Shown here: positions 35,127-62,820 of the stretch, piece after piece
How positions within the stretch are numbered: the stretch's first letter is position 1
How the letters are laid out: each line of letters starts with the position of its first letter
Source of the DNA: an uncultured Candidatus Babeliaceae bacterium
GTDB taxonomy: Bacteria > Babelota > Babeliae > Babelales > Babelaceae
Direction: 5' to 3'
DNA: 64,000 bases
NCBI GenBank assembly: GCA_963704655.1
Contig: OY969927.1
Span: 320,001-384,000, forward strand
Program-made: the position numbers and the translations under genes
Notes under the pieces: generated by a model
What the model saw: the letters and a program-made list of their open reading frames with translations, nothing else
What the model was told of the DNA's origin: nothing
Database searches by the model: none

Positions 35127-35681
35127 GTGTCTGTTCCCTTACTTGTGTTTATTGCAAGCCCGTTTATTATTTTTGATTTGCGGTACACGACGCCTGATAA
35201 CTTTGTTGGAAAAGTTCTTTATCCGCCAAATGCACGTGCGTATGCGCGTAAAGAAGTTGCAGCGGCACTTGTTAATGCTGCACAAGAATTGTATGCAAAG
35301 CATGGGTATAAGCTCGTGATATGGGACGCCTATCGACCACTTTCTGTACAAAAAGAGATGTGGAAAGTTTGTTCAGATGAACGATATGTGGGCAACCCGG
35401 CAAAAGGCTCTAATCATAATCGCGGGTTAGCAATTGACTGTTCTTTGGCCGACAAAGACGGCAACCTATGCGCCATGCCAACTAAGTTTGATGATTTTAC
35501 TCCCGCAGCTCATCGTGGTGATTATAAAAAATGTTCTAAAGATGTTCAAAAACGCATGCATATTTTTGAAGAAGTTATGTATCGACATGGCTTTACCGGT
35601 ATGCCTACTGAATGGTGGCACTTTGATTTTCCGTCACCTGATAGAACTATTCTGGATATCTCTTTTGATGAGCTTGCATGA
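35127..35681 (+). CDS. D-Ala-D-Ala dipeptidase (VanX/DdpX, M15D)
   Basis: DAYRP, SNHNRGLAID and EWWHF motifs. Confidence 0.9.
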   Translation: MSVPLLVFIASPFIIFDLRYTTPDNFVGKVLYPPNARAYARKEVAAALVNAAQELYAKHGYKLVIWDAYRPLSVQKEMWKVCSDERYVGNPAKGSNHNRGLAIDCSLADKDGNLCAMPTKFDDFTPAAHRGDYKKCSKDVQKRMHIFEEVMYRHGFTGMPTEWWHFDFPSPDRTILDISFDELA

Positions 35682-36724
35682 AAAATTGTTTATTTAAAAA
35701 AATAATTTTCACTTTTTTAAGTATCGCCAGCTCTACTATCACTGCGCGCTCATGGACAACCACGTATCATTTTACCCCAAAGGTATTCCATGAATATCCA
35801 GGCATAATTGTTGTAGAAAAAAAGGCTCAAGAGCCATTTGCGCAACTTCTTGTTTCTTGGAACGCTGATTTGCCAAGCCATGGGTACTTGCGATTTTATG
35901 TAGAAGTTTTTGATGAAAAAAAACATGAGTGGTTAATATATAAAATGTATGAATGGGGTAACGGTATACAACGTTCATTTGCTGAAAAAAATAAACAGTC
36001 TGGTGGTGCGCAGTATACGCATGTGCGCTTTGAGGGCGCCCCTGGAAGTTTGTATCATACATTTAAAATAAAAGTTGAATCAGTTGATGGCGCAGAACTT
36101 TCTGCTTTACGTCACATAGCGGTTTGTGCTTGCGATTTGTCTCTTTTTGAAAATGAAACGGTAGGGTTATTGCATGCGACGTATTTTAAAAATAAGTATA
36201 TGTATCTTGCAGATGTGCCCTGTATTTCACAGCATGATGAACAATTTCCTGAAAGCACTGGTTGGTGCTCGCCCACTTCGTTAGCACAGGTTATTGAATA
36301 TTATACGCATAAGCCGATTGATCTTCCTGCTTTTGCGCGAGCGGTATTTGATGAAAAATTAGCTGCATACGGAAGTTGGCCCTTTAATACTGCACAAGCT
36401 GGGGTGTGTCTACCTGAGCATGTTTGTTATATTACACGTTTAAATTCTATAAAAAATTTGATTAAATTGTTATCTCATGGATATCCGGTAGTGGTGAGTA
36501 TCTGTTGCGCAAAGCCATTGCCAGGTGCGCCTAAGGCTTATGATAAAGGTCATTTAATTACCGTAGTTGGTTATGACCTAAGAAAAAATGAGATTATTTG
36601 TCATGATACCGCAGAAAAAGATGAAGCGCATATGATAAAAAATTATCCGTTAGAGCCTTTTATGCAGGCATGGGAACGGCGCCAAAGATTAGCATATGTT
36701 ATTGTCCCTGCTAAAATAGCTTGA
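35678..36724 (+). CDS. Secreted peptidase C39-like protein
   Basis: SQ...WCSPTS, YGSWPFN, GHLITVVG and HD motifs. Confidence 0.75.
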   Translation: MKNCLFKKIIFTFLSIASSTITARSWTTTYHFTPKVFHEYPGIIVVEKKAQEPFAQLLVSWNADLPSHGYLRFYVEVFDEKKHEWLIYKMYEWGNGIQRSFAEKNKQSGGAQYTHVRFEGAPGSLYHTFKIKVESVDGAELSALRHIAVCACDLSLFENETVGLLHATYFKNKYMYLADVPCISQHDEQFPESTGWCSPTSLAQVIEYYTHKPIDLPAFARAVFDEKLAAYGSWPFNTAQAGVCLPEHVCYITRLNSIKNLIKLLSHGYPVVVSICCAKPLPGAPKAYDKGHLITVVGYDLRKNEIICHDTAEKDEAHMIKNYPLEPFMQAWERRQRLAYVIVPAKIA

Positions 36725-37877
36725 AAATTTTAACGGGCGATTCTTTAAAATTATTTCCAAATTTATCTAAGCGCATAACTTGATGCTTTTTATAATAAGC
36801 ATGTAAAAGATCGTCCCACGTATGAATCTTTTTAAGAAGCTGGTCAAGTTTAATGGTGTGTAGTTTTCCTACAAAATTTTCATAGCCAACAGCTTGCGTA
36901 ACCAGAGTGTTTTTAATGTCGGTGATAACAACCACATGCCCTTGTAACCATATAAGATCACCTTCTTGAAGAGTATCGGCAGGAGTAAATTTCTTTCCAT
37001 ATTTTTCAAGCATCGCTGTTGTTTTGAAATTATAGGGAACTTGCGCTATTTGTGCAAAACGCAATACCAGTAATGAACAGTCATAGCCGCATAGCGGAAT
37101 GGTTTCACTTTCTTTACGGTGAAAACGACCAGCATCTTCAATAAAATCATCGCTATAGGCGCGTGTAAAGCTTCCACCGCCCCAGACATAAGGAATCGTA
37201 TTATATGGCGTTTGTTGATCTATTTCATCTACAAATTCCGTTAAAAGTTTTATAAAATCTTGGCGGGATTCTGCTGTTGACAGTTTTTTACTTTTAAAAG
37301 CATGTGAACGTGGTATAAAAAAATATTTTAACGATTTTATGTGAGTATCAAGGTACATTACGTGAAATGCGTCAGGTTCGTGCTGGTCCTGAGCGCAGAC
37401 AAATTGTGTACCAACTGAATACCTTGTGCCGTTAGGGCCAGTAAAAGGGCGCTTTAACGTAATGACATTTTTTTTATGCGCATACTGTGGAATTGTTGGT
37501 AATAGTTCGTGATGGTTTGGGATGGCGTCTATGAAGATAATATTTTTTCGTTCTGCCCAATAACGACATAGTGGCTTGCCATGAGTATCATAGCCGTATA
37601 CTGCCCAAGGTATTGATAACGCAATCATGTTTCCAGAAATTTCTAGCACCTCAAAGCATTCGTTAAAGAGTCCTTGATGTATCCGTGGGCAAACTATAGA
37701 ATCTCGTGTTGCTGCTGGAATAGGCGTATCCGGTAGGTTTGCCGAACCGTAAAGGTCTATGACAGGATATTTTATGAGAGCATACTTTTTAAAGTCATGC
37801 AGGTTATAGTTTGCATCTGCCGTTTTTATAAAAAAGATTATGGCACTCAGTGCCATGAAAAAGATTTTTTGTCCCAT
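36711..37877 (-). CDS. NlpC/P60 (C40) cell-wall peptidase
   Basis: PYVWGG, GYDCS and GDLI...GHV motifs; likely start MGQKIFF at 37877. Confidence 0.8.
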   Translation of the reverse strand: MGQKIFFMALSAIIFFIKTADANYNLHDFKKYALIKYPVIDLYGSANLPDTPIPAATRDSIVCPRIHQGLFNECFEVLEISGNMIALSIPWAVYGYDTHGKPLCRYWAERKNIIFIDAIPNHHELLPTIPQYAHKKNVITLKRPFTGPNGTRYSVGTQFVCAQDQHEPDAFHVMYLDTHIKSLKYFFIPRSHAFKSKKLSTAESRQDFIKLLTEFVDEIDQQTPYNTIPYVWGGGSFTRAYSDDFIEDAGRFHRKESETIPLCGYDCSLLVLRFAQIAQVPYNFKTTAMLEKYGKKFTPADTLQEGDLIWLQGHVVVITDIKNTLVTQAVGYENFVGKLHTIKLDQLLKKIHTWDDLLHAYYKKHQVMRLDKFGNNFKESPVKIFKLF

Positions 37878-38009
37878 ATGTCTTTCTCCCCTACTATTTA
37901 AGATAGGTGGTTTAATGGGCTTAAAGCAATCTTTTAAAGGGGCTTGTGTTATGCACCATTTTTTTGGTATAGTTCCAGAAAATGAGCATGTCACCTTGTT
38001 AACGTAAAA

Positions 38010-38036
38010 GATCCCGGATCGAGTCCGGGATGACAC
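38010..38036. repeat. Single GTCAT-tagged palindrome, same family as 34841-34989
   Basis: GATCCCGGATCGAGTCCGGGATGACAC. Confidence 0.7.
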
Positions 38037-38052
38037 CATCATAGGAGAATTT

Positions 38053-38553: not shown

Positions 38554-39075
38554 TTAGGCGCTGTATTTTATTAAAAGCCATGCTCCAACGGCGAGTGTGG
38601 CTGATATACATGTTGCTACCCCGTCTTTTTGTGTAAATTGAGCATCATTATGATTGATATGTTTGTTTGCGATAAGCCCAGCTAGCATTAATGACAAAGC
38701 AAATGTTCCAACACCACCGATAACATAACCGGCCTGTTTCATGAGTGCAGAAAGTTGAGTCGTTGTTTTTTCAGTATCCATTGTAAGTATTACGGGGATC
38801 TTTTCATCAGCTTTAATCTTTATTCCATTAGTTAAAGCTCTATCAAGAAATGCGATAGTTTCTGGGTTTACGCCAACGGAATTACCTATTTTTGAGAGGT
38901 TTTCTGAACTTTTTAAAAGCGTGTCTTGGCTTTTGTCGATAAGATCAGCAAAGGCAAGTATCGAAGCTATATTTGCCTCTCTGTTATTCTTTTTTTCATC
39001 TGCTAATGCATGAGCAAAGAAAATGTTTAAAGATGCTAATGTGCACAAAGATGTTATTATTAATTTTTTCTTCAT
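38554..39075 (-). CDS. Hypothetical protein (signal peptide, two C-terminal TM segments)
   Basis: ORF track and hydrophobicity pattern. Confidence 0.65.
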   Translation of the reverse strand: MKKKLIITSLCTLASLNIFFAHALADEKKNNREANIASILAFADLIDKSQDTLLKSSENLSKIGNSVGVNPETIAFLDRALTNGIKIKADEKIPVILTMDTEKTTTQLSALMKQAGYVIGGVGTFALSLMLAGLIANKHINHNDAQFTQKDGVATCISATLAVGAWLLIKYSA

Positions 39076-39165: not shown

Positions 39166-39546
39166 TTATTTTCTGTATTCCAAACTCCATAAGAATAAGA
39201 GTGTTCCTGCGCTTACGGCAAGTCCAGCAGCAGGGATTACCCAATCACTCTGCGTGCGTTCTGCTACAGGCTTAGATGGGTATTTATTGAAAAGTTGGTG
39301 CGCAGAATAACAGCCTACAACAAGTGCTAATGTGCCAATACCTGAGGGACGCAAAGCATTTATGAGCCTATCTATAGATTTGGTAAGGGCTTGCGTTTGT
39401 TGGGTTGTGCTTTGCATGAAGGCGTTTAGTTGAGGGATATTGATTGTTGCTGGGGGGATAGTGATGGTCGCTGTTGCTGGCGCTACCATCGCTTGTGCTG
39501 ATTGCATGGATACCATCAAACAAAGAATGATTTTTTTAAATGACAT
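39166..39546 (-). CDS. Hypothetical protein (signal peptide, two C-terminal TM segments)
   Basis: Same architecture as its neighbour. Confidence 0.65.
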   Translation of the reverse strand: MSFKKIILCLMVSMQSAQAMVAPATATITIPPATINIPQLNAFMQSTTQQTQALTKSIDRLINALRPSGIGTLALVVGCYSAHQLFNKYPSKPVAERTQSDWVIPAAGLAVSAGTLLFLWSLEYRK

Positions 39547-39627: not shown

Positions 39628-39656
39628 TTGACTCGATAAAGTTTTTTGGTTATTAT
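39628..39656 (+). promoter_or_regulatory. Sigma70-type promoter
   Basis: TTGACT-N17-TATTAT. Confidence 0.6.
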
Positions 39657-39842: not shown

Positions 39843-40685
39843 ATGAAGTATACATATAGATCTGTTTATATCGTTATAGCTATGACGGTTGCATCAGCTC
39901 AGGCAGAAAATGAGTCTAAAAGTCTTGGTAGTTTTGTTGCAAAAAATGCCTTATTAGGGGCTATTGCCGGTGGTTTAGAGGTAACGGTTAACCAGCCTTT
40001 AGTAACTATCAAAAATAGTTTGCAGCAGCGGCTGCCGATAGCTTTTGACCGCACTTTGTATAAAGGGTATATGGTTAATGCTGGTAGCATGGGGCCGATT
40101 ACAGCGGCTCAGGTAACGGTATATGCGTTGATAAAAAAACAATTCGAGTCGCACGGTAGAGCTCTTTCTGATGCGCAGAATTTGGGGGCTGGTTTTGCAG
40201 CAGGTGCTGTCTCTGGTCTGGTAAGTGGTCCGGCTGAGCTTATTATGTTAAAACAGAAAAATAGTGGTAAAACATTGCAACAGGCTTTTACTGATGTTAT
40301 GAGACAAAAGGGTGTTGCTGGGTTATGGCGCGGCTTTGTGCCAGCGGCAATGCGTGACGGTGGTTTTACTATGGGGTATCTTGCTTTAGGCGATGTCTTT
40401 AAGAACCCTATCAAAAAGATAGTTCATGATGAGCGTCTTGCTTCATTGACGGCCGGCATTTGTGCAGGTTTAGTAGTTGCTCCTCCAACGCACCCTTTTG
40501 ATACAATAAAGACTATTATGCAGGCAGAAGATATAACGCTTAAGCAGGCTATGTATAAAAAATACCGGTCACATGGTGTTCAGGGTTTTTTTGACGGGTT
40601 GTCACCACGTGCGTTCAGGATTCTCTTGGCAATACCTTTAATGAGTATGGTTAAGTATGAACTTTCGCTGCACTTGGATCTTTAG
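39843..40685 (+). CDS. Mitochondrial carrier (SLC25)-family protein
   Basis: Three repeats with Px[DE]xx[KR]-like motifs (QPLVTIK, GPAELIM, HPFDTIKTIMQ) and LYKG / GLWRG / GFFDG motifs. Confidence 0.85.
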   Translation: MKYTYRSVYIVIAMTVASAQAENESKSLGSFVAKNALLGAIAGGLEVTVNQPLVTIKNSLQQRLPIAFDRTLYKGYMVNAGSMGPITAAQVTVYALIKKQFESHGRALSDAQNLGAGFAAGAVSGLVSGPAELIMLKQKNSGKTLQQAFTDVMRQKGVAGLWRGFVPAAMRDGGFTMGYLALGDVFKNPIKKIVHDERLASLTAGICAGLVVAPPTHPFDTIKTIMQAEDITLKQAMYKKYRSHGVQGFFDGLSPRAFRILLAIPLMSMVKYELSLHLDL

Positions 40686-40739
40686 TCTAAAAAAATGCTA
40701 TAATATTGAAATAATCTTATATTGTTGCTTGGAATGTGT

Positions 40740-43520
40740 ATGAATTTTAAAGACACCTTAAATTTACCAAAGACCGATTTTCCGATACGGCCAAATGCTG
40801 CCGTAGAGGATGCGCAGCTTTTGCAGCGCTGGTCGCAAGAAAAACTTTCTGAAAAAGCCTTTACGCATAATAGCGGTGGCAAAAAATATATTTTACATGA
40901 TGGGCCACCCTATGCAAATGGGCATATTCATCTTGGGCATGCCTATAATAAAATTTTAAAAGATCTTATCACCAAATCTCGCCGTATGAAGGGCTTTCAC
41001 GTTCCAGTGACCCCAGGTTGGGATTGCCATGGTTTGCCTATTGAGCTTAAAGTTACTACGCAACCTGAAAATGCTGGCCTTTCGCCTTTAGAAATTAAAA
41101 AAGCATGTCGTGCCTATGCTCAGCATTGGATCGAAGTACAACGTGAAGAGTTTAAAAAACTTGGTGTCTTAATGGATTGGGATAACCCTTATATCACCAT
41201 GAGCCATGATTATGAAGCTTCTATTATTCACGCATTAAGCATCTTTGTTGAACAGGGCTTTATTGAGCGCAAAAATAAGACAGTTGCGTGGTGCTTTTCA
41301 TGTAAAACAACGCTTGCATCAGCTGAAATCGAACATAAAGATCGTAAGGACCCATCTTTGTATGTCAGGTTCCCGCTGCAAAAAAGTGATACAGCGCGCC
41401 TTTTTCCGCAAGCTGAAGATCGTGATGTAAGTTTATTGGTTTGGACAACAACCCCGTGGACATTGCCCTTGAATAGAGGGGTGATGGCTCATCCGCATGG
41501 CACCTATCAATTAGTTGATATGGACGGTACATTGCTGATTGTTGGTTCAAATGTAGCTGCAAAATTAGCGGAATTAACTAAACACACGTTGGTGGTTCTT
41601 AAAGAATTTGACTCAAAACTTCTTGAGGGTCTTTTTGTGCAGCATACGTTTATACAAGATATGCTGGTGCCGGTGATCTTTGATGATTCAGTTGGTCTGC
41701 ATGATGGTACGGCTTTTGTGCATACTGCGCCGGGCTCTGGGCCAATCGACTATGAAGTTGGAGTAAAAAATAATCTTGAAATTTATTCGCCGGTTGCAGC
41801 AGATGGTCGTTATACTGCTGATATTAAACCTGCAGAATTAAACGGCATGTTGATTACCGATGGTCAAATTTGGGTTATAAAAAAACTTGCTGAAACTGGT
41901 ACGTTATTCTTTAAAAATACGATAAATCATAGTTACCCGCATTGTTGGCGCTGTCATAATGGACTTATTTTTCGTGCGACACCACAATGGTTTGTTGATT
42001 TAATGCAGCAGGATATGAAACAGCGTGCATTGCAAGCAATCGAAAAAATATCATTTATTCCTGAGCGTGCGCAGAATTTTTTAAAGGCTACTGTTGAAAA
42101 TAGATGGGAATGGTGTATTTCGCGTCAACGTATTTGGGGCGTGCCGATTCCTGCATTAATCTGTGTGCAGTGTGACCGCGTGGCAACTTCTGTTGAGTTT
42201 ATGCAAGCAATTGCAGCAAAAGTTGCTACTCAGGGAATTGAATATTGGGATGCCGTGCCACTAGAAGAATTAGTGAAACTCGTTGGTGCGTGTACTGGAT
42301 GCGATAAAAAAGATTTTAAAAAAGAGCAGGATATTTTAGATGTCTGGTTTGATTCCGGTATAAGCCATTATGCCGTTCTTGAAAAAAATCCAAACTTAGC
42401 GTTTCCCGCAGATGTTTATTGCGAAGGTGTTGATCAACACCGTGGTTGGTTCCAGAGTTCATTATTAACCAGTTTAGTATTGGAAGATAAGGCTTGTATG
42501 CGTCAGATAATTTCTCACGGATATACCGTTGATGAAAAAGGGCGCAAGATGTCCAAATCGCTGGGTAATGTTATTGCGCCACAGGAAATTATTGAGAAAT
42601 TGGGTACCGATGGTCTGCGTTTATGGGTAGCAAGTGTGGGGCACGATGGCGACCTTGTGGTGTCACCAGTTGTTCTTGCAAACGTTACTGAAGTGTATCG
42701 AAAAATACGCAACACCTGCAGATTCTTGTTACAAAACTTGTATGATTTTGATATAAGACATGATGCCGTTGCTTTTGAAAAGTTATTACCGATTGATCGT
42801 TATGCGTTAAGCAGTTTATATAAATTGCATAACGAGATATTAAAGCTGTACGACCAGGACAATTTTACCGGTATATTCCATGGACTTGCCGATTATTCAG
42901 TTAATGAGCTCAGTTCATTTTATTTAGATATCATTAAAGACAGGCTCTATGTTGAGAAAGCTGACGGCCATGAGCGTCGCTCAGCTCAAACAGTGCTTTG
43001 GTATATTCTTGATACCTTAACGCGCGATATGGCGCCAATACTGTCATTTACTGCCGAGCACCTATCAGACTTTTACCAAGAAGATAAAACTGAATCGATT
43101 CATTTGCAGAATTTCCCTGATCTGCAGAAATTTAAAGATGTTGCTGGTGATGAATCGCTCTGGGAATTTTTGAAATCGTTGCGTTCTGTTGTGCTTAAAG
43201 CACTTGAAGAGCAACGTCAGCAGGGCGTCATTAAACATTCTCTTGAAGCTGCAGTGACGCTCTATGTTTCACCTGCACGCTATACAGAATTGCCTGCATT
43301 GCATAATCTGCTAACGCATGAAAAGTTCTTGAAAGAGTTCTTTATTGTGTCGCAGGTGCATCTTAAACCGGTAGTAGATGATCTTGTTGAGTCTACACTT
43401 AAAGGTGTCTATGCTGCTGCACAGGTTGCTGCCGGTTCTAAATGTCCACGCTGTTGGAACTGGGACCCGGTGATCGATGCGCGTGGGCTTTGTTCACGCT
43501 GTGCGCCATTAGTAAAATAA
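40740..43520 (+). CDS. ileS: Isoleucine-tRNA ligase (bacterial type 1)
   Basis: LHDGPPYANG.IH.GH, WCISRQR, DQHRGWF, KMSKS and a C-terminal CPRCW zinc finger; TGCTATAAT upstream. Confidence 0.97.
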   Translation: MNFKDTLNLPKTDFPIRPNAAVEDAQLLQRWSQEKLSEKAFTHNSGGKKYILHDGPPYANGHIHLGHAYNKILKDLITKSRRMKGFHVPVTPGWDCHGLPIELKVTTQPENAGLSPLEIKKACRAYAQHWIEVQREEFKKLGVLMDWDNPYITMSHDYEASIIHALSIFVEQGFIERKNKTVAWCFSCKTTLASAEIEHKDRKDPSLYVRFPLQKSDTARLFPQAEDRDVSLLVWTTTPWTLPLNRGVMAHPHGTYQLVDMDGTLLIVGSNVAAKLAELTKHTLVVLKEFDSKLLEGLFVQHTFIQDMLVPVIFDDSVGLHDGTAFVHTAPGSGPIDYEVGVKNNLEIYSPVAADGRYTADIKPAELNGMLITDGQIWVIKKLAETGTLFFKNTINHSYPHCWRCHNGLIFRATPQWFVDLMQQDMKQRALQAIEKISFIPERAQNFLKATVENRWEWCISRQRIWGVPIPALICVQCDRVATSVEFMQAIAAKVATQGIEYWDAVPLEELVKLVGACTGCDKKDFKKEQDILDVWFDSGISHYAVLEKNPNLAFPADVYCEGVDQHRGWFQSSLLTSLVLEDKACMRQIISHGYTVDEKGRKMSKSLGNVIAPQEIIEKLGTDGLRLWVASVGHDGDLVVSPVVLANVTEVYRKIRNTCRFLLQNLYDFDIRHDAVAFEKLLPIDRYALSSLYKLHNEILKLYDQDNFTGIFHGLADYSVNELSSFYLDIIKDRLYVEKADGHERRSAQTVLWYILDTLTRDMAPILSFTAEHLSDFYQEDKTESIHLQNFPDLQKFKDVAGDESLWEFLKSLRSVVLKALEEQRQQGVIKHSLEAAVTLYVSPARYTELPALHNLLTHEKFLKEFFIVSQVHLKPVVDDLVESTLKGVYAAAQVAAGSKCPRCWNWDPVIDARGLCSRCAPLVK

Positions 43521-43635: not shown

Positions 43636-45975
43636 ATGAATGATCCTCTACAAGCAATTGAAAAATATGTTCGAGCGGTTAATTACTTATCAGTTAGCCA
43701 AATTTTTCTTCAATCAAATGTGTTGCTTAATCGACCATTAACTTTTGAAGATATCAAGCCGCGTCTTTTAGGGCACTGGGGAACGTGTCCAGGTATTAAT
43801 TTTATGTACGCTCATCTCAATTATCTTATTAAAAAGCATCATCAATCAACGATTTTTGTTTTAGGCCCTGGCCATGGATTTCCTGCATTGCAAGCTAACT
43901 TATTTATGGAGGGAGTTTTACAGAAGTGTTACCAAGAAGCTACCCAAGATGAATCTGGGATCACGTATTTATGCAAAAAATTTAGTTGGCCTTATGGATT
44001 TGCTAGCCACGCAAACCCAGGAACACCGGGTACCATTTTAGAAGGTGGCGAGCTTGGTTATGCATTGTCTACGGCATATGGCGCAGCACTTGATAATCCA
44101 GATCTTTTAGTTGCCTGTGTTATTGGTGATGGCGAAGCAGAAACGGGCGCAACAGCAACTTCTTGGCATATAAATAAATTTCTTGACCCGGTAACCTGTG
44201 GCGCTGTTTTACCTATTTTACACCTAAACGGGTATAAAATTTCAGGACCAACTATTTTTGGGCGCATGACCAACAAGGAATTAAAGTCACTTTTTTATGG
44301 TTATGGGTATGAGCCAATTATTATTGAGGGCAGGGATCTTTACAAAAAAATGGCACAGGGGCTAGAAACAGCATTTCAGCTTATTAAAGATATTCAAAAA
44401 AGTCATAGAGCAGGAACAAGCTCAGGATTTGCCCGTTTTCCTATGATCATTTTAAAAACAAAAAAGGGCTGGACCGGCCCTAAGTATATACACGGCAAAA
44501 AGATTGAAGGGAATAATCTTGCGCATCAAGTAATACTCAAGCAGGCAAAGACTGATAAAAAAGAGTTAGCCATTCTTGAAAAATGGTTGGCATCATACAA
44601 ATTTGCAGAACTTTTTAATCTGGAACATGGATTTGATAAAGATATTACCGCTTTAATACCGCCAGCACCATTATCCATGGGCAATAACGATCATGCTTAT
44701 AGTGGCCGCATATATAAAGATCTTATATTGCCAGACCCCCAAATGTTTGCAGAAGATGCAACCGTTCCAGGAACTATTGGATCAAGCAGTATGCGTAGGG
44801 CTGGTTTATATCTACAGGCACTATGCGAACTTAATAAAAATACAAAAAATTTTAGATTGTTTTCACCAGATGAAATTTATTCAAATAAATTAGATGCGAT
44901 ACTCAGTTGTACATCGCGTGCTTTTGAGTTGCCTATCAAAAAGTGGGACCGCGATTTAATGCCAGATGGTCAGGTTATAGAGATGTTAAGTGAGCATGTA
45001 CTTCAGGGGCTTGCTCAAGGATACACCTTAACGGGTCGACATGCCTTGTTTGCTTCATATGAAGCCTTTATTGACATTGTAAGTAGTATGGCCGCGCAAT
45101 ATGCAAAATTTTTAAAAGCCGCACATGAATTTTCTTGGCGGGGGGATTGCGCGTCATTTAATTACATTCTTACGTCGTCTGGTTGGCGCCAAGAACATAA
45201 CGGATTTTCTCATCAAAATCCTGGATTTATCGGGAACATGCTCAAAAAATATTGTGGATTTATTAAAGCTTATTTTCCTCCAGACGGTAACAGTACGCTT
45301 GCCGTGCTTAAACATTGTTTTGCATCAAAGAATGGTATTAATATTATTGTTGCTGGCAAAACGCTAGAGCCGCGGTGGTTAACACTCCAAGCAGCAGAAA
45401 AAGAATTGAAAAATGGGCTCATGATATGGGATTTTGCAAGCGATGCTGATCCTGATATCGTGTTTGCAGCAATAGGTGATTATCTTACTAAAGAATCATT
45501 AGCAGCAATTGATATTTTAAAAACATGCATTTCAACAATTAAAGTTCGTTTTGTTAATATTATGGTCCTTTCATGCGGTGGTACTTTTGGTAATACGTGG
45601 TTGTCGACACAAGATTTCAATGCTTATTTTACCGCGGATAAACCAGTCATATTCAATTATCATGGCTATCCAGAAACGGTTAAATCGATTCTTTTTGAAC
45701 AACAAAATACGAGCAGGTTTTTTGTGCACGGATATATTGAAAGTGGTTCAACAACAACACCTTTTGACATGCAGGTACGTAATAAAACAAGTCGATATCA
45801 TCTGGTAATCGAAGCGCTTGAATTGTTGGCAAGCACTAATGTTATTGATCGAAAAATTGCTGAAAAGTTTAGTGCAATGTACCGAAATAAATTAGAGGAA
45901 CATGCAGTTTATATCAAAAAATATGGTGTTGATCCAAAAGAAATTGAAGAGTGGCAATGGAAAAGAACTACTTAG
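43636..45975 (+). CDS. xfp: Xylulose-5-phosphate/fructose-6-phosphate phosphoketolase
   Basis: GHWGTCPG, EGGELGY, GDGEAETG, SYEAF and HNGFSHQ motifs. Confidence 0.95.
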   Translation: MNDPLQAIEKYVRAVNYLSVSQIFLQSNVLLNRPLTFEDIKPRLLGHWGTCPGINFMYAHLNYLIKKHHQSTIFVLGPGHGFPALQANLFMEGVLQKCYQEATQDESGITYLCKKFSWPYGFASHANPGTPGTILEGGELGYALSTAYGAALDNPDLLVACVIGDGEAETGATATSWHINKFLDPVTCGAVLPILHLNGYKISGPTIFGRMTNKELKSLFYGYGYEPIIIEGRDLYKKMAQGLETAFQLIKDIQKSHRAGTSSGFARFPMIILKTKKGWTGPKYIHGKKIEGNNLAHQVILKQAKTDKKELAILEKWLASYKFAELFNLEHGFDKDITALIPPAPLSMGNNDHAYSGRIYKDLILPDPQMFAEDATVPGTIGSSSMRRAGLYLQALCELNKNTKNFRLFSPDEIYSNKLDAILSCTSRAFELPIKKWDRDLMPDGQVIEMLSEHVLQGLAQGYTLTGRHALFASYEAFIDIVSSMAAQYAKFLKAAHEFSWRGDCASFNYILTSSGWRQEHNGFSHQNPGFIGNMLKKYCGFIKAYFPPDGNSTLAVLKHCFASKNGINIIVAGKTLEPRWLTLQAAEKELKNGLMIWDFASDADPDIVFAAIGDYLTKESLAAIDILKTCISTIKVRFVNIMVLSCGGTFGNTWLSTQDFNAYFTADKPVIFNYHGYPETVKSILFEQQNTSRFFVHGYIESGSTTTPFDMQVRNKTSRYHLVIEALELLASTNVIDRKIAEKFSAMYRNKLEEHAVYIKKYGVDPKEIEEWQWKRTT

Positions 45976-47078
45976 TTATTAACCTTGGCAGTTCATCCAA
46001 GAGATATTCGTTATTTTCTGAAACGCGTGAACTGTTTTCTTTGCACATCGAAAAAGTATCTTTACAAAAAAACTATGCCAAGAGCACTGTGCATTTTTTT
46101 GAACAGATTAAAAAACAAAATATCTCTGTTCAGCCTGATACTATCAAAGCGATTGCATTTCGTGTAGTAGCTCCAGGCAGCTATTTTATGCAACACAGAA
46201 AAATAACGCCGGCGTATCTAAAAAAATTGCAAGCGACATGTATGATAGCTCCGATTCATAGTGAGCAACTTTTGCATGAGATAGCACAGTGTAAAAAGAT
46301 TATGCCACGTGTTTCTTATTATGGTATTTCAGATAGTGCATTTCATGGCACATTACCTGATGATGCGCGTTTATATGGTTTACCAAAAGATTTTGCAAAA
46401 AAATATGATATGTACCGCTTTGGGTATCATGGCGTTTCATGCACGTCGATACTGCGTAAACTTAAAAAGATGCATGGCAGCGTACCCAAAAATATTATTA
46501 TTTGCCATCTGGGTGGTGGCTCAAGTATCACCGCAGTTAAAAATGGTAAAAGTATTGATACATCTATGGGATTTACCCCACTTGAAGGTGTTCCGATGGT
46601 CACGCGTTGCGGAAATATCGATGCTGCAGCAATACTTTATTTGGTTAACCAAGGGATCACATTAAAAAAATTAATAGATACCCTTTTTAATCAGTCAGGT
46701 ATGGTGGGATTAACTGAACGCAGTGATATGAGAAAAATTGTCACGCTTGCACAACAGGGTGATGCGACATGCTTACAAGCGCTTGAATTTTTTGCATACC
46801 AGATCAAAAAATATATTGGAGCATATCATGCCGTTCTTGGTTCGATTGACCTTTTGGTGTTTACCGGGGGAATTGGTCAAAATGTCCCTCTTGTGCGCTC
46901 ATTAGTGTGTAAAAATCTTTCCTCACTTGGTATTGAACTTGATAGTAGAAAGAATAATTCTCTTGTAGATGTCGATGGCTTTATTCAAGTAACGGCATCA
47001 ACAACAAAAATTGCAGTAGTGAAAAATCAAGAAATGCATGTACTTCTGCATGAAATGCTTAGTTTGATAAACGTATAA
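45957..47078 (+). CDS. ackA: Acetate/propionate kinase
   Basis: INLGSSS, DSAFH, GYHG.S, HLGGGSS, DTSMGFTPLEG and FTGGIG motifs. Confidence 0.92.
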   Translation: MEKNYLVINLGSSSKRYSLFSETRELFSLHIEKVSLQKNYAKSTVHFFEQIKKQNISVQPDTIKAIAFRVVAPGSYFMQHRKITPAYLKKLQATCMIAPIHSEQLLHEIAQCKKIMPRVSYYGISDSAFHGTLPDDARLYGLPKDFAKKYDMYRFGYHGVSCTSILRKLKKMHGSVPKNIIICHLGGGSSITAVKNGKSIDTSMGFTPLEGVPMVTRCGNIDAAAILYLVNQGITLKKLIDTLFNQSGMVGLTERSDMRKIVTLAQQGDATCLQALEFFAYQIKKYIGAYHAVLGSIDLLVFTGGIGQNVPLVRSLVCKNLSSLGIELDSRKNNSLVDVDGFIQVTASTTKIAVVKNQEMHVLLHEMLSLINV

Positions 47079-58862: not shown

Positions 58863-60185
58863 ATGTACAAAAAAACTTTTATCTCATTATTCTTATTATT
58901 TATTGCAATATGTCATGCACAAATACCGAACGAAATTCTTTCAACACCCGCACTTACGGGAATCTTTGATGGCCCTGGAGGGGGAGTAGCAATAACACCT
59001 AATGGTGAATATGCCTATGTTACTAACGGGGCCGGAACTACTGTAAGCGTTATACAAATTTCTAATAATACTCTATATGCAACAATATCTGGTTTTGATT
59101 TACCGCAAGGAATAGCAATAACACCGGATGGACAATATGCCTATGTCACTAACGAGGCCGGAACTACTGTAAGCGTTATTGATCTTAGGCCAGCAAGTCC
59201 CACCTATAATCAGATAGTATCAACAATAACTGTTTCTGGTCAACCATTTGTAATAACAATAACACCGAATGGTGATTATGCCTATGTTTCTAATGTCGCA
59301 TACGTTATAAATGTTATTAAAACTTCTGATAATACCGTGCTAGTAACACCAGGATTAACAAACACTTTTAGAGAACCCAATGGAATAGCAATAACCCCAG
59401 ATAATCTTTTTGCCTATGCTGCTGATTCTCAAGAAAATACGGTTAGTGTTATTGATATTGATCCTTCAAGTGCCAACTATAATACGATAAAAGAAGTTAT
59501 AACTGGTTTTTCTTATCCCGATATAATAGCAATAACACCAGATGGACAATATGCCTATGTTGCTAATGCTGGTAATAGTGGGGGGTGTGTAAGTGTTATT
59601 GATCTGAGGCCAGCAAGCTCCACCTATAATCAGATATTATCAACACCAGGATTAACAACTGGTTTTAATGAACCCAGAGGGCTAGCAATAACACCAGATG
59701 GGCAATATGTCTATGTTACTAATACCAATGGAAATAGTGTAAGTGTTATACAAATTTCTAGTAATACCATACTTTCAACACCTGGTTTAACGAGTGGTTT
59801 TGATGAGCCCTTTGCAGTAGCAGTGACACCTGATGGACAATATGTCTATGTTGCTGATTTTGGTGCTAATAGTGTGGTTGTTCTCTACAGCCCCGCACCC
59901 TTGAATGCTAGTGGTTGCAAAAGAAAGGATAACTTTTTAACGCAAACAGATAACTATAATCATCTTACCTGGTCAGCACCAGAAGCGGGTTCACCCGCTG
60001 CATATCAAATTTACCGCGATGCAGCATTAACGCAATTAGTTGCAACTGTGCCTGCCTCTGGCATTTTGCAGTATGATGATCATAATCGAAATCCAAATGT
60101 AAATTACACCTATTATATTGTTGCAGTTGATGCTTCAGGAAATCTTTCATCGCCTGCTGTTACTACCGTTACACAATCTTGTTAG
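58863..60185 (+). CDS. YncE/YVTN beta-propeller protein with C-terminal FN3-like domain
   Basis: Seven AITPDGxYAYV repeats; signal peptide. Confidence 0.88.
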   Translation: MYKKTFISLFLLFIAICHAQIPNEILSTPALTGIFDGPGGGVAITPNGEYAYVTNGAGTTVSVIQISNNTLYATISGFDLPQGIAITPDGQYAYVTNEAGTTVSVIDLRPASPTYNQIVSTITVSGQPFVITITPNGDYAYVSNVAYVINVIKTSDNTVLVTPGLTNTFREPNGIAITPDNLFAYAADSQENTVSVIDIDPSSANYNTIKEVITGFSYPDIIAITPDGQYAYVANAGNSGGCVSVIDLRPASSTYNQILSTPGLTTGFNEPRGLAITPDGQYVYVTNTNGNSVSVIQISSNTILSTPGLTSGFDEPFAVAVTPDGQYVYVADFGANSVVVLYSPAPLNASGCKRKDNFLTQTDNYNHLTWSAPEAGSPAAYQIYRDAALTQLVATVPASGILQYDDHNRNPNVNYTYYIVAVDASGNLSSPAVTTVTQSC

Positions 60186-60254
60186 AGGTATTGATTTGTA
60201 TGCGCACAATATGTTTTAGTAAGAAAAAAATTCAAACTTTTGAAAGCGGGTATC

Positions 60255-61532
60255 ATGTTTAAAAAATCTTTTATATTTTTGGTATCGCTTTTTAGCATAG
60301 CGTGCCAGGCACAAGAGTTAAGTTATATCTTACCAACACCTGGCTTAGAAAGCGGTTTTAATAGTCCTATAAATGTGGCAATAACACCAGACGGTCAATA
60401 TGCCTATGTCACAGATAGTGGCAGTAATAGTGTGATTGTTATAGATGTTGCAAGTAATACCATTTTATCAACCCCTTATTTAACGGGTGTCTTTTCTGAC
60501 CCTTTTGGAATCGCAATTACCACCGATGGCAAATATGCGTACGTTACTAATGTTGGCAATAATACTGTAAGTGTTATAGATATAGCAAATAAAACCATAG
60601 AAACGTTAGCAACCGGTTTTTATGAACCGTTTGCAATAGCAATAAAACCAGATAATAGCTATGCCTATGTTACCAATCTTAGCAATGATAGTGTAAGTGT
60701 TATACAGATCTCGAATAATGCCGTAACAACACCAGCTGGTTTAAGCACGGGCTTTAATAGTCCAAGGGCAATAGCAATAACACCAAATAATACCTATGCT
60801 TATGTTACCAATTCAGACGGAAATTCGGTAAGCGCTATAACGCTTTCTAGTAATACTATTTATGCGACCATTACAGGATTTTATTATCCCGGTGCAATAG
60901 CAATTACACAAGATAGTAACTATGCTTATGTTGCCAATTCCGACAATAACACTGTCAGTGTTATACAAATTTCTGACAACACCATACTGCCAATATCTGG
61001 ATTAGATACTGAGTATGTTCCTCAAGGAATAACAATAAGTGGTAACTATGTGTATGTTACTTCTGGTAATGCTCCCTATGGTGCTGTCAATGTTATACTA
61101 ATCTCTGATAATAAGCTCTTATCAGTCCCAGGTTTATTAAGAGGTTTTGATGAGCCTCGAGGAATAGCAATAACCCCTAATGGGCAATATGGGTATGTGG
61201 TTAATTATGATAGTCATAGTGTAACTGTCATCTACAATCCTACGGTCTTGAATGTGAGTGGATGCAAAAGAAAAAATATCTTCTTAACGCAAATTGATAA
61301 CTATAATCATCTTACCTGGGCTGCACCGGCAGCGGGTGAACCCGCTGCATATCAGATTTACCGCGATGCAGCGTTAACGCAATTAGTTGCAACTGTGCCT
61401 GCCTCTGGCATTTTGCAGTATGATGACCATAATAGAAACCCGAATATAAATTACACCTATTATATTGTTGCAGTTGATGGTTCAGGAAATGTTTCAGCAC
61501 CTGCTGTTACTACCGTTACACAATCTTGTTAA
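60255..61532 (+). CDS. YncE/YVTN beta-propeller protein with C-terminal FN3-like domain
   Basis: Paralogue of the preceding gene. Confidence 0.88.
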   Translation: MFKKSFIFLVSLFSIACQAQELSYILPTPGLESGFNSPINVAITPDGQYAYVTDSGSNSVIVIDVASNTILSTPYLTGVFSDPFGIAITTDGKYAYVTNVGNNTVSVIDIANKTIETLATGFYEPFAIAIKPDNSYAYVTNLSNDSVSVIQISNNAVTTPAGLSTGFNSPRAIAITPNNTYAYVTNSDGNSVSAITLSSNTIYATITGFYYPGAIAITQDSNYAYVANSDNNTVSVIQISDNTILPISGLDTEYVPQGITISGNYVYVTSGNAPYGAVNVILISDNKLLSVPGLLRGFDEPRGIAITPNGQYGYVVNYDSHSVTVIYNPTVLNVSGCKRKNIFLTQIDNYNHLTWAAPAAGEPAAYQIYRDAALTQLVATVPASGILQYDDHNRNPNINYTYYIVAVDGSGNVSAPAVTTVTQSC

Positions 61533-61548
61533 CATGAAAGTGAGTATA

Positions 61549-62820
61549 ATGTTTAAAAAATCTTTTATCTTAATGTTCTTGCTTGTAAGTGCAGTATGCC
61601 AGGCACAAGAACCTAACACGATACTTAATACACCTTATTTAGATGGCGGGTTTAATGAACCGCAAGGTGTTGCTGTAACGCCAAATGGTCAATATGCCTA
61701 TGTTTGTAACTACGGCGAAAGTACTGTGAGCGTTATAGATGTCTCTACCAACTCAATAGCAACTGTGATATCAGGTTTTGATTACGGACCGCAAGGAGTA
61801 GCAATAACACCAGATGGCAAATACGCTTATGTTACTAATAATACTGGAAACAGCGTAAGCGTTATAAATTTATCAACCAATTCAATTTTGACAACAATAC
61901 CGGGTTTTAATCAACCAGTAGGAGTAGCAATAACACCAGATGGCAAATACGCTTATGTTTGTGCTGGCGGTGATGTAAAGGTTATAGACGTATCTACCAA
62001 CACCGTATCAGCAACGATAACTGGTCTTGATGATACCGCTGGAATAGCAGTTACACCAGATGGGCAATACGCCTATGTTACTATCCCGTTTGAGGGCTAT
62101 GTCGTCGTTATAAAAACTAAAGACAATTCAGTATTGACAACAATAACCGGCTTTTCTGAGCCGCAGGTACTAGCGATCACGCCGGACAACAAATACGTTT
62201 ATGTTGGAAACACTTATCAGTTAAAGGTAATAACTATTGCGGATAATGAGATATCAACAACGATATCTGGCTTTAATTTTATCTCTGGAATTTCAATAAC
62301 TCCTAATGGGCAATATGCGTATGTAACTAATTTCAATGGAAATAGTGTGAGTGTTATAGACTTAATCCCGACAGATCCAGCCTATAATACTATAATTTCA
62401 ACACCTGGCTTAGAAAGTGGGTTTACTTTTCCTGCTGGAATAGCGATCACACCAAATGGTAGCTATGCATATGTTACGAATCTATTTGGAAATAGTGTAA
62501 ATGTCATTTTTATTAAAACGCCTCTTACTGCGCCGGTTAATTTTAGCGGATGTAAAAGAAAGAATAGCTTTTTAACATCAGTTGATAATTATAACCACTT
62601 AACCTGGTTTGCATCGAGCGCCGGAACACCCGTATCGTATCAAATTTACCGCGATGCAGCGTTAACGCAATTAGTTGCAACTGTGCCTGTCTCTGGCATA
62701 TTGCAGTATGATGACCATAATAGAAATCCGAATATAAATTACACCTATTATATTGTTGCTGTTGATGGTTCAGGGGATGTCTCTGAGCCAGTAATTACTA
62801 CCGTTACACAATCTTGCTAA
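61549..62820 (+). CDS. YncE/YVTN beta-propeller protein with C-terminal FN3-like domain
   Basis: Paralogue of the two preceding genes. Confidence 0.88.
   Translation: MFKKSFILMFLLVSAVCQAQEPNTILNTPYLDGGFNEPQGVAVTPNGQYAYVCNYGESTVSVIDVSTNSIATVISGFDYGPQGVAITPDGKYAYVTNNTGNSVSVINLSTNSILTTIPGFNQPVGVAITPDGKYAYVCAGGDVKVIDVSTNTVSATITGLDDTAGIAVTPDGQYAYVTIPFEGYVVVIKTKDNSVLTTITGFSEPQVLAITPDNKYVYVGNTYQLKVITIADNEISTTISGFNFISGISITPNGQYAYVTNFNGNSVSVIDLIPTDPAYNTIISTPGLESGFTFPAGIAITPNGSYAYVTNLFGNSVNVIFIKTPLTAPVNFSGCKRKNSFLTSVDNYNHLTWFASSAGTPVSYQIYRDAALTQLVATVPVSGILQYDDHNRNPNINYTYYIVAVDGSGDVSEPVITTVTQSC

Follow-up and report, generated by a model that had tools for sequence, protein, structure and literature searches.

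A mitochondrial carrier family protein with a predicted Sec-type signal peptide in a Dependentiae genome, a putative importer of the parasite's own inner membrane

The mitochondrial carrier (SLC25) family is characteristic of eukaryotes, and among its bacterial members only one, an injected effector, has been studied. This protein, LncP, is delivered by the Dot/Icm type IV system, avoids YidC and SecYEG, and acts as a nucleotide carrier in host mitochondria (Dolezal et al. 2012, PMC3252375). Further published bacterial carriers, as far as the available part of that paper names them, are relatives of LncP in Legionella and genes in Neorickettsia (PMC3252375), and the presence of a carrier gene in Cardinium (SCaMC type, with similarity to nucleotide carriers) was explained by horizontal transfer (Brown et al. 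2018, PMC6232779). In the Dependentiae, which are a phylum of obligate protist parasites (PMC6561590), the carriers of Babela massiliensis were listed among the nutrient importers "with unknown specificity" (Pagnier et al. 2015, PMC4378268). Literature searches that paired "mitochondrial carrier" with Dependentiae, TM6, Babeliales, Babelota, or Vermiphilus returned nothing beyond the 2015 paper among the matches listed, and supplements may list such genes; the word "carrier" is absent from the Chromulinavorax paper. A preprint on CysZ/YihY as remote carrier homologues (10.64898/2026.03.31.715626) was set aside, since its available text does not concern true bacterial carriers. Here, we describe a carrier gene (positions 39843..40685, + strand) in a 64,000-nucleotide stretch of contig OY969927.1 from an uncultured Candidatus Babeliaceae bacterium (hereafter, the window), and we argue that its product probably serves the bacterium in its own inner membrane.

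The carrier gene is an intact open reading frame (ORF) with an ATG start that encodes 280 amino acids plus a stop codon. Its product is a genuine SLC25 protein, far beyond chance. The protein matched Pfam PF00153 (Mito_carr) with an E value of 4.7e-32 and 110 bits (curated cutoff, 22.3 bits) in four stretches, and the family profile recognized three tandem repeats of about 100 residues; a six-frame search of the whole source genome with PF00153 returned this gene as the sole match. Against solved structures, the single sequence found UCP2 at 1e-8, while a 12-row family profile retrieved carriers exclusively down to an E value of 2.3e-4 (UCP2, 5.6e-24). The AlphaFold2 model (88-row alignment; mean predicted local distance difference test score [pLDDT], 90.3; predicted template modeling score, 0.85) contains six helices (i.e., residues 28-62, 76-103, 110-141, 165-191, 197-229, and 253-278; H1 to H6) and three short matrix helices (i.e., three repeats in the threefold pseudosymmetry of the family). 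The first 14 listed Foldseek matches of the model in the PDB were all mitochondrial carriers (E values, 2.5e-09 to 8.4e-06; template modeling [TM] scores, 0.60-0.76) and included UCP1 (8hbv; E value, 2.5e-9; TM score, 0.73), ADP/ATP carriers, and a Tetrahymena carrier. A Protein Atlas look-up returned generic carrier clusters only (score, 0.91) and no subfamily, and an NCBIfam search of the protein returned nothing relevant. A preliminary description of this DNA, made from its letters, had proposed a three-repeat SLC25 carrier and a Mito_carr search; both the search and the model uphold that identification.

The N terminus of the carrier, MKYTYRSVYIVIAMTVASAQA/ENES, has the n-h-c layout of a signal peptide, with basic residues K2 and R6, a hydrophobic core (V8-V16), and A-Q-A at positions -3 to -1. 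On the basis of this layout, the model, and a comparison of the family, residues 1-21 (39843..39905, + strand) are predicted to form a Sec-type signal peptide, whose c-region (A17-A21) would be cut after A-Q-A; the signal-peptide-like ...ASAQA extension reported in the preliminary description is thus recovered. In the model, residues 6-18 form a separate low-confidence helix, which is followed by coil. The closest relative (P0002; full-length, 69% identical) aligns from residue 1, and the annotated start is therefore supported. We extracted 31 different full-length Dependentiae carriers from the returned loci (plus one short second tandem copy), and all of them carry an N-terminal extension of 17-67 amino acids with a hydrophobic 10-mer (Kyte-Doolittle mean, 1.76 or more). 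The same extension occurs in none of the 13 named eukaryotic relatives, 12 of which have six or fewer residues ahead of the domain; the thirteenth, from Cyanidium, has an arginine-rich, nonhydrophobic stretch of 23 residues there. The Sec-type segment is thus a conserved trait of Dependentiae carriers that was not found in the named eukaryotic relatives examined. Among the best 150 cluster representatives world-wide, 59 have the hydrophobic extension, 84 lack it, and 7 are truncated at the N terminus, and the extension-bearing proteins dominate the top ranks. The source genome contains a signal peptidase I gene. Lysine and arginine residues number 11 in the three matrix loops versus 3 in the outer loops and tails of the carrier, a charge bias that agrees with an orientation in which the N terminus is outside and the matrix loops are inside.

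The N-terminal region varies in other ways across the wider family. In several Dependentiae carriers (L017, L033, L034, and others), a cysteine ends the hydrophobic segment (..FGAC, ..VQAC), and these could be lipoprotein-type signals instead of signal peptidase I sites. An uncultured Chlamydiae metagenome-assembled genome (MAG) encodes a 350-residue homologue (L043:3905-4954, + strand; 27% identical) with a nonhydrophobic N terminus of 40 residues where the Dependentiae have the signal peptide; together with the metagenomic protein P0015, which resembles it, it may represent a differently handled chlamydial branch. Six of the best 150 proteins (P0096, P0163, P0173, P0178, P0203, and P0205; 460-640 amino acids) have a region of 170-350 residues fused before the carrier domain, with a common "GTED..L.ALF ... 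AR.W" stretch.

The gate motifs differ in a regular way from the family signature, which is Px[DE]xx[KR] with a glutamine brace on each odd-numbered helix. By the limits of the model, repeat 1 (H1, matrix helix, and H2; residues 28-103; 39924..40151, + strand) carries P52-L-V-T-I-K-N-S, which keeps the first base and lacks the acid and the second base, with Q61; repeat 2 (H3, matrix helix, and H4; residues 110-191; 40170..40415, + strand) carries P130-A-E-L-I-M-L-K, which keeps the acid and lacks the first base; and repeat 3 (H5, matrix helix, and H6; residues 197-278; 40431..40676, + strand) carries P218-F-D-T-I-K-T-I, which keeps the acid and the first base and is complete with the glutamine brace Q227 (i.e., PFDTIK..Q). 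Two motifs had earlier been called degenerate. The H1 and H3 motifs are indeed noncanonical, but none of the 31 Dependentiae carriers and none of the 12 algal carriers has an acidic residue at the H1 acid position or a basic one at the H3 base position, a pattern that points to a family trait and not to decay. Under what we take to be the usual pairing rule, the H1 acid and the H3 base form one salt bridge, while E132-K223 and D220-K57 form the other two. Because the two altered positions are partners under this rule, one matrix salt bridge appears to have been lost on both sides, with two remaining. In working carriers, when one residue of such a bond is changed, its partner often changes too (Ruprecht and Kunji, available text of PMC7611774).

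By alignment to UCP1 and UCP2, the contact points of the carrier are S82 (I), R171-D172 (II), and R259 (III, the basic residue); in the phmmer alignments, R171 and R259 align with the H4 and H6 arginines, respectively, of both proteins. The pair R-[DE] at contact point II reportedly marks amino acid carriers, according to Robinson and Kunji in 2006. Across the 31 Dependentiae carriers, contact point II has R or K in all 31 and D or E in 26, and contact point III is R in 23. All positions conserved in the family are kept in the window carrier, including R171-D172, R259, P52, P130, and P218. Contact point II sets the substrate class of carriers, as described in the available parts of PMC7611774 and PMC12410006. 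A search of the complete genome for the S-adenosylmethionine synthetase gene metK (PF02773) gave no match, and for this reason S-adenosylmethionine was considered; it is one candidate among several amino-acid-like substrates, which the metK result does not separate. Three close pairs of Dependentiae carriers, none of which includes the window gene, have ratios of nonsynonymous to synonymous substitution rates (dN/dS) of 0.09, 0.20, and 0.10, and the family is therefore under purifying selection.

We consider it rather likely that the carrier works in the bacterium's own inner membrane, in the mitochondrial orientation, and imports an amino-acid-like metabolite of the host. The signal peptide would bring the nascent carrier to SecYEG/YidC, and signal peptidase I would cut after A21, leaving the new N terminus in the periplasm; the six helices would then insert with both ends outside, and the three "matrix" loops rich in lysine and arginine would stay in the bacterial cytoplasm. 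The orientation would be that found in mitochondria, the periplasm corresponding to the intermembrane space and the cytoplasm to the matrix, and an uncut N-terminal segment would act as a seventh helix with the same result. The carrier would alternate between states open to the periplasm and to the cytoplasm, with a matrix gate that keeps two salt bridges (E132-K223 and D220-K57) where three are usual, plus the glutamine braces Q61 and Q227 and a central site formed by S82, R171-D172, and R259. Since R-[DE] at contact point II is the signature of the amino acid class, the likeliest job would be the exchange of a host amino acid or related amino-carboxylate (e.g., a basic amino acid, a carnitine-like compound, or S-adenosylmethionine) for a bacterial product. 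Such an exchange would feed an obligate parasite with little biosynthesis.

Several observations weigh against this reading. The hydrophobicity threshold is unspecific, since it is reached within the first 35 residues by 66% of 1,196 crudely called ORFs of the genome, and a cruder signal-peptide rule passes 32% of the same ORFs. We therefore dropped hydrophobicity as a stand-alone test, and the argument for a signal peptide is a joint one from position (i.e., an extra segment before helix 1), layout (i.e., a basic start, a hydrophobic core, and A-x-A), and the contrast between bacterial and eukaryotic carriers. About 44% of the proteins in the phylum carry signal sequences (available text of PMC6561590), so that such a segment is less diagnostic here. 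The residues at the cytoplasmic gate (Y94-A..K98, G183-D184..K187, and Y272-E273..L276) retain part of the [YF][DE]xx[KR] motif of even-numbered helices but fall in columns that are unconserved in the family, and these columns are poorly aligned, one set being shifted by one residue. The assignment of contact point II to the amino acid type (R-D) is drawn from the Robinson and Kunji rule and from alignment to UCP1 and UCP2 only. The gene itself is dispensable, accessory, and patchy in the phylum; its atypical G+C content and codon use, which fit recent transfer, could also mean poor expression; and no RNA runs matching the stretch were listed, a result that says nothing on expression. Finally, no conserved gene neighbor hinting at a substrate was found among seven carrier loci with 4-kb flanks.

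The preliminary description had set two readings side by side, and the import of nutrients across the bacterium's own membrane is the better supported of them, given the contrast in the N-terminal extension (31 of 31 versus 0 of 13) and the presence of signal peptidase I. The other, an effector that is exported and inserted into a host membrane (i.e., the mitochondrial inner membrane or that of another organelle) and diverts metabolites as LncP does, appears unlikely. That a bacterial carrier can arrive in host mitochondria is known from LncP (PMC3252375), and the available text on a cultured member of the phylum reports that it replicates wrapped by a host mitochondrion, that it sheds outer membrane vesicles, and that a host-directed role is suspected for many of its proteins with signal peptides (PMC6561590). 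However, LncP must avoid SecYEG/YidC and uses Dot/Icm (PMC3252375), whereas the window carrier has a Sec signal of a kind conserved in every Dependentiae carrier extracted. Markers of type IV (VirB4, PF03135; VirD4/TraG, PF02534), type III (FHIPEP), and type VI (VipB) secretion had no match in the complete genome, a search that could miss a very divergent type IV system at its VirB4 and VirD4/TraG markers, so that an effector has no known delivery route here. The two secretin genes of the genome might seem to offer one, but secretin-based systems move folded soluble proteins, and a hydrophobic protein of six helices, once in the Sec pathway, is expected to remain in the inner membrane; both points count against an effector.

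The carrier is thinly spread in the phylum. In the six-frame search, PF00153 carriers were found in 36 of 261 genomes of the phylum, including the window's own, and were absent from the other 225; they occur in 28 of 189 high-quality genomes, 24 of 145 genera, and 6 of 21 families. All 261 genomes fall in one order and are small. The same profile had no match in 14 control genomes or in five other genomes of the same genus (66-94% complete). A library of 1.84 billion proteins contained 5,763 cluster representatives matching the carrier at an E value of 1e-3 or better (878 at 1e-10 and 73 at 1e-30), of which P0002 is the sole relative that is more than 50% identical. To find relatives on contigs, a 12-row alignment was used, since the single protein found none and a 34-row alignment was too diverse. 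The carrier of L011, which belongs to the same order, is identical over 283 of 283 residues to the carrier in a Vermiphilus pyriformis record, and the other named relatives come from Babeliales MAGs.

The window carrier has its nearest relatives among the carriers of other Dependentiae; of the named eukaryotes, the closest, at about 33% identity, are green and red algae and not amoebae (i.e., Chloropicon, Pedinophyceae, Polytomella, Micractinium, Coccomyxa, Chromochloris, Chlorokybus, Bryopsis, Parachlorella, Cyanidium, and Cyanidioschyzon). Although the family arose in eukaryotes, the epithet "host-derived" used in the preliminary description needs qualifying on these comparisons. In a quick, unrooted maximum-likelihood tree (88 rows; N-terminal columns left out), an algal clade of 39 rows excludes the window protein and all Dependentiae rows (Shimodaira-Hasegawa-like approximate likelihood ratio test support, 99), and the backbone among the bacterial rows is poorly resolved. 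A tree in which the 31 Dependentiae rows were held together against the 13 named eukaryotes was 63.7 log-likelihood units better than the free search (approximately unbiased test P value, 0.997), and a single bacterial carrier clade is accordingly not rejected by the alignment. Because the free tree has a poorly resolved backbone and is worse by that amount, no donor or direction of transfer was drawn from it. The window protein groups with P0002 (support, 100) and then with a Vermiphilus carrier of another family (support, 93), and the gene tree within the phylum departs from taxonomy. The more parsimonious reading is that the gene was gained recently from another Dependentiae bacterium, with repeated loss as the alternative.

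We give an even chance to the broader proposal that the Dependentiae domesticated a eukaryote-derived carrier by means of a Sec signal peptide, with the whole clade (i.e., all 31 members taken from genomes and 59 of the best 150 cluster representatives) residing in the bacterial inner membrane and the two-bridge gate, which algal carriers share, marking one ancient interdomain transfer, either from alga to bacterium or the reverse.

The setting of the gene in its genome bears on a further alternative. The source genome is a single contig of 1,298,077 bp that is 96% complete by marker genes, and the G+C content of the carrier gene is 43.2% versus 38.0 +/- 3.1% for the genes of the genome (96th percentile), while its codon score lies in the 4th percentile. 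No signs of a mobile element were found around it (i.e., the searches gave no repeat at other places in the genome and no convincing repeats at the flanks). Four of the same-genus genomes keep the order C39 peptidase, NlpC/P60, Dps, small membrane proteins, and ileS (ileS 74-86% identical), and these four loci contain neither a carrier nor a carrier remnant; the closest genome has a spacer of 470 bp at that place. Slightly less probable than an effector is a recently acquired and dispensable passenger gene with little or no current function, or one whose product remains a membrane protein that has drifted away from transport. Such a gene would fit the absence from five of five same-genus genomes with flanking synteny kept in four, the atypical composition and codon use, and the lack of a listed RNA run, but its 280-codon frame is intact with all family-conserved positions kept, a full-length orthologue exists at 69% identity in P0002, and related Dependentiae pairs show dN/dS values of 0.09-0.20. 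The two noncanonical gate motifs, which could otherwise be taken for drift, recur in all 12 algal carriers. Eukaryotic contamination or an assembly chimera, which the overwhelmingly eukaryotic family and a G+C content 5 points above the genome mean could suggest, is very improbable, since the intronless gene with its bacterial signal peptide lies inside a single 1.3-Mb contig between bacterial genes and 36 bp from the ileS frame, the identical protein occurs on 4 contigs (the longest being 1,307,222 bp), 35 other genomes of the phylum have homologues in bacterial contexts, and one short run contig (40575-40725) starts within the carrier gene and stops after the first 4 bases of the ileS frame, which is not a proper bridge. 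Other short contigs that match segments of the gene exactly come from public runs of two studies, with low depth and partial cover.

The downstream neighbor on the same strand is ileS (40722..43520, + strand; Pfam tRNA-synt_1, E value of 3.8e-123), whose true start is probably a few codons later, because its relatives align from residue 7. The reading frames are 36 bp apart with no terminator-like site between them, and cotranscription or read-through is possible from this arrangement. A promoter-like site (TTGACT-17-TATTAT; 39628..39656, + strand; 10 of 12 matches in a consensus scan) lies in the AT-rich spacer of 296 bp upstream of the carrier gene; such sites are weak evidence in this region, where 8 were found versus 6.2 expected from shuffles. 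The position next to ileS had been cited in favor of nutrient uptake. That argument fails, because the four same-genus genomes keep the neighborhood without the carrier and the adjacency recurs in only one other carrier-bearing genome, in divergent orientation; the adjacency is no evidence on function. In that other genome (L039:4948-5616, + strand; also on L009), a second Mito_carr ORF of 223 amino acids (E value, 1.7e-8), with its own hydrophobic N terminus, directly follows the full-length carrier beside the divergent ileS, and it may be a tandem duplicate in decay.

The seven carrier loci mentioned above have unrelated housekeeping neighbors (i.e., trigger factor, RRF, EF-Ts, MurD, FtsW, CTP synthase, Ku, and LigD). 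Three other neighbors were considered as substrate clues (i.e., an ATP-binding cassette importer gene that one carrier directly follows, and a major facilitator superfamily transporter gene and a tRNA_SAD-domain gene, each beside one carrier), but they were not used as evidence. Near one carrier lies a gene for a GIY-YIG nuclease of 93 amino acids (L038:2279-2557, + strand), on a contig of 12.7 kb that was binned as "Pseudomonadota."

The window also encodes GidB, a GatA-type amidase, MreC, RecJ, IleRS, ribosomal protein L9, DnaB, RuvC, RecF, and DnaN. Just upstream of the carrier gene are genes for two small proteins without a Pfam match (38554-39075 and 39166-39546, both - strand); both have a signal-peptide-like start (one also ends in SAQA) and a C-terminal hydrophobic stretch, and they are variably present in the same-genus genomes. 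A cluster of cell wall peptidase-like genes (35127-38042; M15 D-Ala-D-Ala dipeptidase, C39-like, and NlpC/P60) precedes them and is followed by a Dps/ferritin gene; C39-like, NlpC/P60, and Dps were matched in the four same-genus genomes, where the M15 query matched nothing. Downstream of ileS, a phosphoketolase gene (XFP_N/XFP/XFP_C; E value, 2.6e-139) and an overlapping acetate kinase gene (together 43636-47078, + strand) form a pair capable of yielding ATP from sugar phosphates, in a phylum that is generally said to have no energy metabolism. Next to dnaN and recF lie three paralogous beta-propeller genes in a row (lactonase/arylesterase/NHL-type matches; 58863-62820, + strand). Outside the window, the genome contains two tandem TLC-type ATP/ADP translocase genes (G000:C1:575536-578513, - strand), which show a host-dependent lifestyle.

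The window gene belongs to a known and barely described kind, the carrier family transporters of the Dependentiae. New here are the clade-wide Sec-type segment and the presence/absence polymorphism at the ileS locus, together with the orientation that the segment implies, the predicted two-bridge gate, and the putative amino-acid-type contact point. If the carrier does operate in the bacterial membrane, it would be the first natural case of a protein of this family doing so, and the parasite would offer the host cytosol an import port of the kind that the host mitochondria have. A conserved clade with signal peptides would then show a second route for the reuse of host transporters, namely, in the bacterium's own membrane. 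It would also offer carrier biochemists a natural Sec-dependent insertion of this fold, which bears on expression in bacteria, and it bears on the feeding of parasites with almost no metabolism. In practical terms, the gene provides a defined, testable candidate for an importer in a phylum in which transport has hardly been studied.

Among the described systems, the carriers of Babela massiliensis are closest to the window carrier in phylum, protein family, and presumed import role; the available portion of the paper gives them one clause, without sequence analysis, signal peptide, topology, substrate class, or phylogeny (PMC4378268). The carriers of Cardinium and Neorickettsia are likewise carrier family genes in obligate intracellular bacteria, with horizontal transfer as the published explanation, but they were not among the relatives found and are set apart by the SCaMC-type similarity reported for them (PMC6232779). 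The algal carriers (e.g., the "mitochondrial substrate carrier protein" of Chloropicon primus, P0013, and the "Crc1p"-labeled protein of Cyanidioschyzon merolae, P0066) share the gate pattern and R-[DE] at contact point II, whereas they lack the N-terminal hydrophobic extension and form the separate 39-row clade. LncP resembles the window carrier as a bacterial member of a eukaryotic family that is held to be laterally acquired, in an intracellular bacterium of protists (available text of PMC3252375). It differs in that the window carrier has a predicted Sec signal, a genome without type IV markers, and a contact point II of R-D that is not of the nucleotide type. The TLC/NTT nucleotide transporters of Chlamydiae, Rickettsiae, and Dependentiae belong to an unrelated 12-helix family of bacterial origin, but the carrier described here would follow the same strategy, that of an inner membrane exchanger tapping the host cytosol.

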